Shown: positions 21,523 through 27,964 of the stretch, piece by piece
How positions within the stretch are numbered: position 1 is the first letter of the stretch
Layout: the number at the start of each line of letters is the position of its first letter
NCBI RefSeq assembly: GCF_045037415.1
Contig: NZ_CP173438.1
Length of the DNA stretch: 64,000 nucleotides
DNA from: Escherichia coli
Lineage (GTDB): Bacteria > Pseudomonadota > Gammaproteobacteria > Enterobacterales > Enterobacteriaceae
Reading direction: 5' to 3' (one strand)
Notes under the pieces: model-generated
The model's input: only the letters and a program-made list of their open reading frames with translations
What the model was told of the DNA's origin: nothing
Database searches by the model: none
Made by a program: the position numbers and the translations under genes

Positions 21523-21839
21523 AAATTCTCCTGTAAAACGCGGAATATACCGTACCTCTTAGCGGGGAAAAACAGGGTTATGCGGCAACGTCGAAATTAA
21601 ATGTGATCTGCCACGCCTTTTATCACAAAAGTGTCTCCGGAAGTACGATGCAAATTTGCCTGGCAAAATAAGGATAATCAACAAATTACGAATCGCTGCA
21701 CACCTGTGCTGATGACTACTACGCAGAGAAACAAATGTGCAAGAGAAAGCGCTATTTCCCCCCATGCAAAGAGTGAAAAATCGCTTTGAAAGGCCATCAT
21801 GATGGGGTTATATCAGATCAAGCGGTGAGAAAGCGTATT

Positions 21840-21853
21840 TGCACAAATGTGCA
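21840..21853. promoter_or_regulatory. perfect 6-2-6 inverted repeat TGCACAAATGTGCA upstream of sorC, candidate operator
   Basis: palindrome 17 bp upstream of sorC ATG; related half-site caaatgtgca also at ~21733; no binding evidence. Confidence 0.35.
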
Positions 21854-21869
21854 GAACCAGGAGGCGGCA

Positions 21870-22817
21870 ATGGAAAACAGTGACGATATCCGTTTGATTG
21901 TGAAGATTGCCCAACTCTATTACGAACAGGATATGACGCAGGCGCAAATTGCGCGCGAACTGGGTATTTACCGCACCACCATCAGCCGCTTGCTTAAACG
22001 AGGCCGCGATCAGGGAATTGTCACCATCGCCATCAACTATGACTACAACGAAAATCTCTGGCTGGAGCAGCAAGTGAAGCAAAAGTTTGGCCTGAAAGAC
22101 GTTGTGGTGGTGTCAGGAAATGATGAGGATGAAGATACTCAACTGGCGATGATGGGGTTACACGGCGCGCAACTGCTGGATCGCTTGCTGGAACCTGGTG
22201 ATATTGTTGGTTTTTCCTGGGGTCGCGCGGTGAGCGCACTGGTTGAAAACTTGCCGCAGGCGGGGCAATCGCGGCAGTTAATTTGCGTGCCGATTATTGG
22301 CGGCCCGTCCGGTAAACTCGAAAGCCGCTATCACGTAAACACATTAACCTACAGCGCGGCAGCGAAGCTGAAAGGGGAATCGCATCTCGCGGATTTTCCG
22401 GCTCTGCTGGATAACCCATTAATTCGTAATGGGATCATGCAGTCTCAGCACTTTAAAACCATCTCTGCCTACTGGGATAATCTGGATGTCGCCCTGGTGG
22501 GAATTGGCTCACCGGCCATTCGCGACGGCGCTAACTGGCATGCGTTTTATGGTGGTGAAGAGAGTGACGACCTGAATGCCCGCCAGGTTGCTGGCGATAT
22601 TTGCTCGCGCTTTTTTGATATTCACGGCGCAATGGTTGAAACGAATATGAGCGAAAAAACACTCTCTATCGAAATGAATAAATTAAAGCAGGCACGGTAT
22701 TCCATTGGCATTGCCATGAGCGAAGAAAAATACAGCGGAATTGTTGGTGCACTGCGTGGAAAATATATTAATTGTCTGGTAACGAATAGCAGCACAGCTG
22801 AACTATTACTGAAATAA
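21870..22817 (+). CDS. sorC: SorC-family (DeoR-like HTH plus sugar-binding domain) regulator of the sorbose operon
   Basis: start at MENSDDIRLIVKIAQLYYEQDMTQAQIARELG with RBS aggagg; N-terminal HTH; 315 aa. Confidence 0.8.
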   Translation: MENSDDIRLIVKIAQLYYEQDMTQAQIARELGIYRTTISRLLKRGRDQGIVTIAINYDYNENLWLEQQVKQKFGLKDVVVVSGNDEDEDTQLAMMGLHGAQLLDRLLEPGDIVGFSWGRAVSALVENLPQAGQSRQLICVPIIGGPSGKLESRYHVNTLTYSAAAKLKGESHLADFPALLDNPLIRNGIMQSQHFKTISAYWDNLDVALVGIGSPAIRDGANWHAFYGGEESDDLNARQVAGDICSRFFDIHGAMVETNMSEKTLSIEMNKLKQARYSIGIAMSEEKYSGIVGALRGKYINCLVTNSSTAELLLK

Positions 22818-22886
22818 AAATCTTCCCGATGTTTACCGTAATAAAAATTACGGCGGGTCCTTATTATCTAAAATCAGGAGTCTGTT

Positions 22887-23693
22887 ATGCAAACGTGGTT
22901 AAATTTGCAGGATAAAATCATTATTGTCACCGGTGGCGCATCCGGCATTGGTCTGGCGATTGTGGATGAATTATTAGCACAAGGCGCGAATGTACAGATG
23001 GTCGATATTCACGGTGGCGATGGTCAGTATGAAAGCCATAAAGGTTATCAGTTCTGGCCGACCGATATTTCCAGCGCCAAAGAGGTAAATCATACGGTAG
23101 CAGAAATTATCCAGCGTTTTGGTCGCATCGACGGTCTGGTTAACAACGCCGGGGTCAATTTCCCGCGTCTGCTGGTCGATGAGAAAGCGCCTGCCGGGCA
23201 GTATGAACTCAACGAAGCTGCATTCGAAAAAATGGTCAATATCAACCAGAAAGGCGTTTTTCTGATGTCGCAGGCGGTGGCGCGACAGATGGTCAAACAA
23301 CATGATGGCGTGATTGTGAATGTTTCCTCAGAAAGTGGGCTGGAAGGCTCAGAAGGCCAAAGCTGTTACGCCGCGACCAAAGCCGCGCTCAATAGCTTCA
23401 CGCGCTCCTGGTCGAAAGAGCTGGGTAAGCACGGTATCCGTGTGGTCGGTATCGCGCCGGGGATTCTGGAAAAAACAGGGCTGCGCACGCCGGAATATGA
23501 AGAGGCGCTGGCGTGGACGCGCAATATCACCGTCGAGCAGCTGCGTGAAGGCTATACCAAAAACGCCATTCCTATTGGGCGCGCCGGAAGATTAGCAGAA
23601 GTGGCTGATTTTGTTTGTTATCTGCTGTCTGAACGCGCCAGCTATATCACCGGAGTAACCACTAACATTGCGGGCGGCAAAACGCGCGGCTAA
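22887..23693 (+). CDS. sorD: short-chain dehydrogenase (sorbitol-6-phosphate dehydrogenase type)
   Basis: 268 aa; TGGASGIG Rossmann motif and YxxxK catalytic pair (SCYAATKAA). Confidence 0.8.
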   Translation: MQTWLNLQDKIIIVTGGASGIGLAIVDELLAQGANVQMVDIHGGDGQYESHKGYQFWPTDISSAKEVNHTVAEIIQRFGRIDGLVNNAGVNFPRLLVDEKAPAGQYELNEAAFEKMVNINQKGVFLMSQAVARQMVKQHDGVIVNVSSESGLEGSEGQSCYAATKAALNSFTRSWSKELGKHGIRVVGIAPGILEKTGLRTPEYEEALAWTRNITVEQLREGYTKNAIPIGRAGRLAEVADFVCYLLSERASYITGVTTNIAGGKTRG

Positions 23694-26302: not shown

Positions 26303-26353
26303 TTCTTCGCCCCGGCGCAACCGTCGGGGCCATCGTTCAACACGAGGTGGTTT

Positions 26354-27583
26354 ATGAAAACAACAGCTCTGCGTCTTTATGGTAAACGTGATTTACGCCT
26401 GGAAACCTTTGACCTTCCTGAAATGCAGGAGGATGAAATCCTCGCAACGGTGGTCACTGACAGCCTGTGCCTCTCTTCCTGGAAAGAGGCCAATCTGGGT
26501 GAAAATCATAAAAAAGTACCCGACGATGTGGCGACCAATCCCATCATCATCGGCCACGAATTTTGCGGCGATATTCTGGCCGTGGGTAAAAAGTGGCAGC
26601 ACAAATTCCAGCCGGGTCAGCGTTATGTGATTCAGGCCAACCTGCAACTCCCCGACCGCCCGGATTGCCCCGGCTACTCCTTCCCGTGGGTAGGCGGCGA
26701 AGCGACGCATGTGGTTATTCCCAACGAGGTCATGGAACAAGATTGCCTGCTGGCATACGACGGCGAAACCTATTTTGAAGGCTCGCTGGTTGAACCGCTT
26801 TCCTGCGTGATTGGCGCGTTCAACGCCAACTATCATCTTCAGGAAGGTAGTTATAACCACACGATGGGGATTCGCCCGCAAGGGCGCACGCTGATCCTCG
26901 GCGGCACCGGACCAATGGGACTGTTGGCGATTGATTATGCGCTACATGGACCCGTTAACCCTTCGCTGCTCGTCATTACCGATACCGACAACGACAAATT
27001 GAGTTATGCGCGCAAGCACTATCCATCAGAACCGCAAACACTGATTCATTATCTCAATGCCGCCGATGCAGCATTTGATACGTTAATGGCACTGAGTGGC
27101 GGTCACGGCTTCGATGATATTTTCGTCTTTGTGCCTAATGAAGGACTGGTGACTCTCGCCTCTTCCTTGCTGGCGACAGATGGTTGTCTGAATTTCTTCG
27201 CCGGACCGCAGGATAAGCACTTCAGCGCGCCAATTAATTTCTACGATGTGCATTATGCATTTACCCACTACGTGGGCACGTCAGGCGGCAATACCGACGA
27301 CATGCGCGCAGCGGTCAAATTAATTGAAGAGAAAAAAGTGCAGGCCGCAAAAGTGGTAACACATATTCTTGGGCTGAATGCCGCGGGCGAAACCACGCTT
27401 GAATTGCCTGCCGTCGGCGGCGGCAAAAAGCTGGTGTATACCGGGAAATACCTGCCGCTGACGTCACTCACGCAGATTCAGGATCAAGCACTGGCGGCGA
27501 TTCTGGCGCGTCATCAGGGGATCTGGTCCGGTGAGGCGGAGCAATACCTGCTCGCCCATGCAGAGGCAATTTCCCATGATTAA
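26354..27583 (+). CDS. sorE: zinc-dependent dehydrogenase (sorbose-1-phosphate reductase type)
   Basis: 409 aa medium-chain dehydrogenase/reductase; last gene of the sorCDFBAME-like cluster. Confidence 0.75.
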   Translation: MKTTALRLYGKRDLRLETFDLPEMQEDEILATVVTDSLCLSSWKEANLGENHKKVPDDVATNPIIIGHEFCGDILAVGKKWQHKFQPGQRYVIQANLQLPDRPDCPGYSFPWVGGEATHVVIPNEVMEQDCLLAYDGETYFEGSLVEPLSCVIGAFNANYHLQEGSYNHTMGIRPQGRTLILGGTGPMGLLAIDYALHGPVNPSLLVITDTDNDKLSYARKHYPSEPQTLIHYLNAADAAFDTLMALSGGHGFDDIFVFVPNEGLVTLASSLLATDGCLNFFAGPQDKHFSAPINFYDVHYAFTHYVGTSGGNTDDMRAAVKLIEEKKVQAAKVVTHILGLNAAGETTLELPAVGGGKKLVYTGKYLPLTSLTQIQDQALAAILARHQGIWSGEAEQYLLAHAEAISHD

Positions 27584-27743
27584 TCGCGCTACTTAACTCT
27601 GCATGTCGCTGGCTGGTCGCCGCGGCAACTTCGCGACCTGATGTGCGGCTGATTGCTGAAGCGGCACAATGTGCACGAGAAGGATAAAAAAACATCAGCG
27701 CCTTAAGGGGCGCTCAAATTGGTGGCAAAGTGCACATTGTTTA

Positions 27744-27844
27744 TGCCGGATGCGGAATGAAGCCTTATTCGGCCTACATAATCTTGAAAATTCAATATAT
27801 TGCAGTTATCTGGTAGGCCAGGTAAGCGTAGCGCATCAGGCAAT
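27744..27844. repeat. REP/BIME elements between sorE and pepE
   Basis: gccggatgcggaatgaagccttattcggcctac and gtaggccaggtaagcgtagcgcatcaggc. Confidence 0.8.
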
Positions 27845-27964
27845 CCTGTGTTTGTCATCAGTCTCAGCGCCTGTGCAATATGTGACATCGTGAGCCATGT
27901 CAGTAAGTGGTTAAATTCGCAGTGGTAGCATTCCTTCCGTGTTTTCTTACTAACCGGAGAAGTA

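Follow-up and report, generated by a model that had tools for sequence, protein, structure and literature searches.

In a 64,000-nucleotide stretch of an Escherichia coli chromosome (RefSeq assembly GCF_045037415.1, contig NZ_CP173438.1; the window from here on), positions 21523-27964 are precisely the space between rluF and pepE and carry seven co-directional genes that an earlier note, made from the sequence alone, had taken for an L-sorbose operon. All seven genes were present and intact when examined by open reading frames (ORFs), family searches and RefSeq annotation. We are highly confident that the region is an intact chromosomal L-sorbose operon, sorCDFBAME, in its usual place between rluF and pepE, and that the locus is ancestral, the empty site of K-12-type strains being a derived deletion. 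The operon in the window is ordinary and already known. The genes and their two flanks are as follows, with lengths in amino acids (aa).

20650-21522, minus strand: rluF, 23S rRNA pseudouridine-2604 synthase, the left core flank, divergent from sorC (NF007784 equivalog, 606 bits; RefSeq).
21870-22817, plus strand: sorC, SorC-family transcriptional regulator, 315 aa, with a SorC/DeoR-type helix-turn-helix and a PF04198 sugar-binding domain.
22887-23693, plus strand: sorD, short-chain dehydrogenase/reductase (SDR) family D-glucitol(sorbitol)-6-phosphate dehydrogenase, 268 aa (NF004817, 501 bits against a cut-off of 304).
23703-24110, plus strand: sorF, free-standing EIIA of the mannose family, 135 aa (TIGR00824, 145.6 bits against a cut-off of 98; PF03610).
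24110-24604, plus strand: sorB, free-standing EIIB(Sor), PTSIIB_sorb, 164 aa, its start overlapping the sorF stop.
24670-25467, plus strand: sorA, EIIC membrane subunit, 265 aa (TIGR00822 EII-Sor, 422 bits against a cut-off of 340).
25478-26302, plus strand: sorM, EIID membrane subunit (EIID-AGA), 274 aa, with the RefSeq start (TIGR00828, 471 bits against a cut-off of 293).
26354-27583, plus strand: sorE, zinc-type medium-chain dehydrogenase fold, 409 aa (ADH_N and ADH_zinc_N; RefSeq name sorE).
27965-28654, plus strand: pepE, dipeptidase E, the right core flank (NF003642, 357 bits; RefSeq).

Successive genes from sorC to sorE are separated by 69, 9, -1, 65, 10 and 51 bp. The tight spacing described in the earlier note is therefore there, but its overlaps, given in the plural, reduce to a single true one, between sorF and sorB, which share the tetranucleotide ATGA. 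The translation of SorD has both the TGxxxGxG and YxxxK motifs, and that of SorE has the GHE motif. An Rfam scan of 21400-28100 at E ≤ 1 returned zero RNA families.

To place the operon by substrate, we compared SorC and SorB with characterised Klebsiella pneumoniae Sor proteins, a check that the earlier note had proposed, and found both to be about 86-87% identical to their counterparts. SorC aligns over 315 of 315 aa with K. pneumoniae SorC (PDB 2w48) at 86.3% identity, and the next different protein is 2gnp, at E 1e-40. SorB is 86.9% identical across 160 aa to K. pneumoniae IIB-Sor (PDB 1nrz; E 6e-91), compared with E 2e-49 to the ManX IIB domain and 1e-40 to the levan IIB, and the phosphorylation/active-site motif RIDDRLIHGQV is the same in SorB and 1nrz. 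The last gene shares 85-87% identity with its syntenic counterparts in Klebsiella and Raoultella, and its RefSeq product in a 100%-identical record from sequence type 131 (ST131) is sorE, L-sorbose 1-phosphate reductase; its best NCBIfam match is IolM, at 52 bits, far under the cut-off. We found the gene order, a SorC orthologue and an IIB-Sor, together with IIA, IIC and IID subunits and a SorD above curated cut-offs, which places the region among operons of the sorCDFBAME type. The SorC and SorB comparisons and the RefSeq name of sorE thus support the phosphotransferase system (PTS) and catabolic operon for L-sorbose, in the order sorCDFBAME, that the earlier note had recognised; the outcome that would have spoken against it, best matches to a mannose- or levan-type PTS with another set of dehydrogenases, did not occur. 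That the system is a known one was also correct, as the L-sorbose operon is already in the literature (PMC2808357, PMC12817954).

Read in this way, the operon would encode uptake and phosphorylation of L-sorbose to L-sorbose-1-phosphate by a mannose-family PTS consisting of soluble SorF (IIA) and SorB (IIB) and membrane-bound SorA (IIC) and SorM (IID). SorE would then reduce sorbose-1-phosphate to D-glucitol-6-phosphate, which SorD would oxidise to D-fructose-6-phosphate for entry into glycolysis, and SorC, the product of the first gene, would act as an activator with sorbose and as a repressor otherwise. The pathway is established in Klebsiella and E. coli and is restated in two of the papers on E. 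coli (PMC13410766, PMC12817954). In ST131 the seven sor genes are the genes most strongly induced by sorbose and deletion of sorE abolishes sorbose use, while a knock-in at the same site allows an ST10 strain to gain growth on sorbose (PMC12817954). A sorD deletion mutant of CFT073 accumulates sorbitol and grows poorly on sorbose (PMC13410766). MG1655, without the operon, is sorbose-negative, and enteroaggregative E. coli (EAEC) 042 has the operon beside rluF (PMC2808357). Sorbose growth or induction has been linked to the operon in ST131, ST648, CFT073 and EAEC 042 (PMC12817954, PMC13410766, PMC2808357).

We next turn to how the locus varies within the species. Among 5426 complete E. coli genomes, the sor segment (at least 80% of 21523-27964) is present in 2865 and a K-12-type rluF-pepE spacer, mostly at 99-100% identity, in 2557. 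The two alleles together cover all but four genomes, indicating that the site is essentially bi-allelic. The comparison of the rluF-pepE interval that the earlier note had suggested therefore returned either sor or the K-12-type empty site in nearly all genomes, and the absence from K-12 and variable presence in E. coli that it had claimed are borne out by these genomes, by the K-12-type strain and by published work (PMC2808357). Sor-negative genomes among the matches listed share only 27875-27964 of the interval (query 6353-6442). The segment is 100% identical to that of an O25b:H4-ST131 chromosome and 99.1% identical to that of Nissle 1917. The operon has been found in more than 86% of the genomes of each phylogroup except A (9.6%) and B1 (12.1%) (PMC12817954). 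In the K-12-type strain rluF and pepE lie 211 bp apart, and the interval divides as follows.

21558-27874, plus strand: segment missing from K-12-type chromosomes, which have 86 bp where the window has 6317 bp (blastn against K-12-type loci).
21523-21557, no strand: rluF-proximal intergenic DNA common to the K-12-type allele, a 35-nt match by direct reading within the blastn block 20641-21557; the left junction falls after 21557.
27875-27964, plus strand: pepE-proximal intergenic DNA common to the K-12-type allele, where a blastn block begins at 27875; the right junction falls before 27875.

Two side observations concern the same segment: strain EC65 (NZ_CM128671.1) has ~780 bp of extra DNA within it, and in one place the segment was matched on a plasmid.

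The direction of this polymorphism was examined in a synteny survey, in which a SorE scan with one genome per species gave 80 loci onto which the window proteins were mapped. The order yjbD-rluF (divergent)/sorCDFBAME/pepE-yjbB recurs in E. whittamii, a further Escherichia sp., three Pseudocitrobacter, about nine Citrobacter, five Klebsiella, several Raoultella and an Enterobacter sp.; E. albertii has the right-hand half of the same order, its contig ending within sorA. pepE was undetected in the K. indica locus and in Cedecea and two relatives with otherwise the same order. At least six other enterobacterial genera thus have the sor genes at this rluF/pepE site. The Sor proteins and the flank proteins show similar levels of identity, as in K. 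grimontii, where RluF is 93%, PepE 89% and SorC to SorE 79-94% identical. The segment has a G+C content of 0.44-0.57, like the surrounding DNA; RefSeq annotates no integrase, transposase or tRNA gene in or beside the interval, and no direct repeat was seen at the junctions on reading. The marks of a genomic island (mobility genes, tRNA or repeat borders, atypical composition, varying context) are thus absent from the locus. Additionally, the first ~47 nt of the 86-bp K-12 spacer align with the upstream region of sorC in its Citrobacter-type form (z = 4.3-6.4 relative to shuffles), and the alignment includes a degraded copy of a conserved TGTGATC box. The shared site across genera, the ordinary G+C, the lack of mobility genes and the trace in the K-12 spacer favor a sor locus that is ancestral to Escherichia and its enterobacterial relatives and was deleted in the K-12 (A/B1) lineage, so that the K-12-type empty site would be a derived deletion, common in phylogroups A and B1. 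The words "inserted" and "island" in the earlier note hold only as a description relative to K-12; as history they are probably mistaken, given the conserved site in other genera, the ordinary G+C and the missing mobility genes.

Several results weigh against our reading of the locus. The last ~40 nt of the 86-bp K-12 spacer are without a detectable source, which means that the deletion was not a clean excision, and a source for the spacer was not found in the sor region of E. coli or E. whittamii. The flanks are also more diverged from the K-12-type strain (94.8% identity at 20641-21557 and 95.9% at 27875-30411) than the neighboring blocks (97.4-97.7%), which makes recombinational exchange of old alleles possible; this divergence is consistent with old, linked haplotypes, and recombination between old alleles probably had a part in the history of the locus. 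On the side of function, a SorE-specific model is absent from NCBIfam, and the direct comparison with characterised Klebsiella proteins covered SorC and SorB, the other five being assigned by family models, RefSeq names and synteny. Growth of ST131 on sorbose persists after deletion of sorAM, indicating that this transporter is not the sole entry route and that other PTSs continue uptake (PMC12817954). Upstream of sorC, a consensus scan did not find a canonical sigma-70 site, counts in the window being at or below the shuffle expectation; the TGCACA-N2-TGTGCA type of palindrome is not enriched across the window; and the promoter and operator assignments given below were made by phylogenetic footprinting alone.

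We consider it improbable that the K-12 arrangement is instead the original one and that the ancestor of this strain gained the operon as an island, by horizontal transfer and insertion between rluF and pepE. Such an insertion would fit the absence of the operon from 47% of complete E. coli genomes, K-12-type strains included, yet the empty allele is nearly invariant, as a single recent deletion would give, and it is in the sister phylogroups A and B1 that the operon is mostly missing (PMC12817954). The operon stands without the rluF flank in Mangrovibacter, a Serratia sp., an Erwinia sp. and Pantoea, whereas site and orientation are the same in Escherichia, Citrobacter, Klebsiella, Raoultella, an Enterobacter sp. 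and Cedecea. The flank genes are unusually diverged between the two alleles, but the divergence of the Sor proteins scales with that of the flanks across genera, and an inserted island would leave unexplained the ordinary composition, the lack of an annotated integrase, transposase, tRNA gene or visible junction repeat, and the ~47 nt of sorC-upstream homology kept in the K-12 spacer. DNA at this locus can cross genus boundaries, as the block pattern in Pseudocitrobacter implies. In the three loci from that genus (L006, L007, L083; ~4020-11230), the proteins of the yjbD-rluF-sor block are 93-98% identical to those of E. coli, with PepE at 85-86% and LysC at 90-91%, a pattern suggesting that Escherichia and Pseudocitrobacter exchanged the block recently.

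It is very unlikely that the operon, although present, is non-functional and decaying in this strain. An adjacent eighth gene, sdhL, has already been destroyed, and at least one genome (EC65) carries the ~780 bp of extra DNA in the segment. Set against this, the seven ORFs are full length and the motifs of SorB (RIDDRLIHGQV), SorD (glycine-rich and YxxxK) and SorE (GHE) are in place; ST131 strains share the sequence at 100% identity, one ST131 strain has been shown to grow on sorbose by means of these genes, and sdhL is absent from sorbose-positive ST131 (PMC12817954). It is scarcely credible that the cluster serves a substrate other than L-sorbose, through a PTS of the mannose, fructose or levan type and associated dehydrogenases. 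In favor of such a reading, the four PTS subunits match NCBIfam and Pfam models that cover mannose/fructose/sorbose families in general, a family model specific for SorE is lacking and the sorAM mutant of ST131 stays sorbose-positive (PMC12817954). Against it, SorB matches IIB-Sor far better than ManX or the levan IIB (E 6e-91 against 2e-49 and 1e-40), SorC is 86% identical to the Klebsiella sor regulator, IIA and IIB are two proteins, which is the Sor arrangement and not that of ManX with its fusion, the sorbose pathway requires just this pair of dehydrogenases, and sorbose induction, loss on sorE or sorD deletion and gain on knock-in have all been reported for E. coli operons of the same type (PMC12817954, PMC13410766).

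Returning to the intact sor operon, we examined the sorC upstream region in a phylogenetic footprint, in which the rluF-sorC spacer was aligned from 10 taxa of 7 genera. The conserved blocks are invariant, save for one or two nearly invariant or variable positions in some of them, and the following elements were marked.

21602-21608, plus strand: conserved box TGTGATC, invariant columns in the 10 taxa; candidate regulator-binding region.
21624-21634, plus strand: conserved box CACAAAAGTGT, invariant columns in the 10 taxa; candidate regulator-binding region.
21697-21710, plus strand: imperfect palindrome TGCACACCTGTGCT, one mismatch to TGCACANNTGTGCA; candidate distal SorC operator.
21732-21742, plus strand: half-site CAAATGTGCAA, invariant or nearly invariant columns 213-223; candidate operator half-site.
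21786-21814, plus strand: promoter-like pair TTGAAA-N17-TATATC, overlapping the conserved block GGTTATATCAGA (21806-21817).
21840-21853, plus strand: perfect palindrome TGCACAAATGTGCA, an exact match to the palindrome motif, lying past the putative -10 and just upstream of the ribosome-binding site; candidate SorC operator, the proximal one.

As the consensus scan gave no canonical promoter, cross-genus conservation was used instead, and as the palindrome is not enriched in the window, it is conservation and not count that serves as evidence. Across all 10 taxa, 13 of the 14 positions in the TGCACAAATGTGCA palindrome do not vary and the remaining one is nearly invariant, and the GCACA-N3-GTGC core of the distal element, at 21698-21709, is invariant across genera. 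The TTGAAA-N17-TATATC pair is the probable sor promoter, and its weak -10 is consistent with a promoter that depends on an activator. Judging from this conservation, transcription would start from a weak, activator-dependent promoter near 21786-21814, and SorC may bind at the TGCACA-N2-TGTGCA palindromes at 21840-21853 and 21697-21710. TGTGATC...TCACA was also considered as a CRP site, and rejected because its half-sites stand 16 nt apart and not 6.

The 380-bp tail 3′ of sorE is not empty; what is left of sdhL lies in it, together with a stable stem-loop and two repetitive extragenic palindromic (REP) elements, as listed here.

27576-27687, plus strand: sdhL remnant, 112 bp of a shikimate-dehydrogenase-like eighth gene (alignment with intact genes; tblastn).
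27662-27748, plus strand: nested stem-loop with outer arms ACAATGTGCAC and GTGCACATTGT around a hairpin at 27697-27714; minimum free energy -33.9 kcal/mol, z = -4.1 against shuffles.
27745-27777, plus strand: degenerate REP element, in which CTTATTCGGCCTAC matches the REP tail.
27813-27842, minus strand: inverted REP element, forming a pair with the copy at 27745-27777 that resembles a bacterial interspersed mosaic element (BIME); the canonical form stands at the aligned position in E. whittamii.

The ATG of the remnant overlaps the sorE stop and its codon 7 is a stop (27594-27596); ~700 bp have been lost internally, with the junction near 27633/27634, and the last 17 codons and the stop are kept. 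A tblastn search of the window with SdhL returned residues 1-22 and 255-271 only, and 27576-27687 falls short of a full-length SdhL (~271 aa, NF009202/1npy) and is a pseudogene remnant. Intact sdhL encodes 271 aa in E. whittamii and in one divergent E. coli, and its ATG overlaps the sorE stop (ATGATTAA) in the aligned Escherichia. The E. whittamii protein scores 463 bits against NF009202 (cut-off 306) and matches Haemophilus influenzae HI0607 (PDB 1npy) at E 6e-113; 7cok, a structure from that superfamily, is a 5-ketofructose reductase. The gene lies directly 3′ of sorE in most syntenic enterobacterial loci, with only fragments in a few such as Cedecea, and was undetected in two Cedecea relatives in the scan of syntenic loci. 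Only 177 of the 5426 complete E. coli genomes have it intact; another deletion, an internal one, destroyed it here and in most sor-positive E. coli. One match to the segment, NZ_AP017617.1, diverges past ~27633, at the sdhL deletion junction, and so probably carries intact sdhL. Published work reports sdhL in ST648 and its absence from sorbose-positive ST131 (PMC12817954); that absence can be refined, as a remnant with both ends of the gene survives. A broader proposal, which we put forward as doubtful, is that the enterobacterial sor locus is an eight-gene unit in which SdhL may take part in ketohexose metabolism, that most E. coli lost sdhL by one ~700-bp deletion while keeping sorbose use, and that the invariant TGCACA-N2-TGTGCA palindromes are the SorC operators.

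The small ORFs in 27584-27964 are accounted for by the sdhL remnant and the REP elements. A terminator scan flagged the hairpin at 27697-27714 with a T-run on the minus strand only, and the stem-loop at 27662-27748, at the 3′ end of the transcription unit, is probably a terminator or an RNA-stabilising structure. The REP tail motif occurs at 13 sites in the window against 0.33 expected; it was used in place of the full-length REP consensus, which with three mismatches gave no match, the pattern being too long for the 33-34-nt copies in the window.

The closest known system is the sorCDFBAME operon of K. pneumoniae, which matches the present one in its seven genes, their order and their orientation, and likewise has a split IIA and IIB and the same two dehydrogenases. 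It was reportedly described by Sprenger and Lengeler in 1984, Wöhrl and colleagues in 1990, and Wehmeier and Lengeler in 1994. The Klebsiella species examined share the chromosomal neighbors rluF and pepE, the genome of the characterised strain lying outside the retrieved loci, and their proteins differ from those of the window by ~13-25%. Klebsiella and Raoultella loci have an intact sdhL 3′ of sorE, whereas the window has the 112-bp remnant. The E. coli sor operons of EAEC 042, ST131 PBIO729, ST648 and CFT073 lie at the same locus beside rluF, with the same absence from MG1655 and ST10, and nothing substantive differs (PMC2808357, PMC12817954, PMC13410766). E. coli manXYZ belongs to the same mannose-class superfamily (IIA, IIB, IIC, IID), but its ManX is a fused IIAB, it has no linked SorC regulator or dehydrogenases, its specificity for hexoses is broad and it is part of the core genome.

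More distant clusters were also recovered. Two Enterococcus species (L034, L036, ~5400-11230) have the same seven genes in the same order, with SorE 64-65%, SorA 71% and SorM 73% identical, while the Gilliamella clusters run sorFBAME and then sorC, with no close sorD in the cluster. The regulators of these Enterococcus and Gilliamella sor-like clusters (L034, L036, L038-L048) are 36-40% identical and the chromosomal context is another one. Many metagenome-assembled genomes of anaerobes have SorE homologues (48-56%) without PTS genes.

Outside the operon, the rest of the window is collinear with K-12. The earlier note had held that the operon explains most of the extra DNA in the window, and this was right, as the only other sizeable window-specific block is at 30412-31425. 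This block, 1014 bp of low G+C (0.35) between yjbB and metH that is missing in the K-12-type strain, contains two hypothetical ORFs: one of 149 aa at 30546-30995 on the minus strand, hydrophobic and without a Pfam match, and one that RefSeq annotates as frameshifted. Positions 48569-64000 did not align to the K-12-type strain, because that strain is rearranged at an rrn operon, yet they are a normal purHD-zraRSP-hupA-thi region. Conversely, K-12 sequences are missing at three joints of the window: a SopA-family pseudogene (yjbI, ~1.9 kb) at 3323-3337, xylE (~1.8 kb) at 11325-11329 and arpA (annotated espL4, ~2.5 kb) at 36131-36154. Phylogroups B2 and F typically lack arpA, and its absence fits the ST131 identity of the window. 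At 20649/20650 the stops of yjbD and rluF abut, where the K-12-type strain has ~122-132 bp extra between them.

Knowledge of the operon dates from the 1980s and includes its pathway, its place on the map and its absence from K-12; the distribution of the operon and its role in ST131 fitness were published in 2025-2026. The additions made here are minor: that the polymorphism probably arose by loss in K-12, that a remnant of sdhL survives, and that conserved palindromes are candidate SorC operators. As annotation, the operon marks the window as coming from a sorbose-positive, non-A/B1 chromosome (ST131-like, B2). It also corrects the usual habit of reading blocks that K-12 lacks as insertions, since at this locus it is the K-12 state that appears to be derived.

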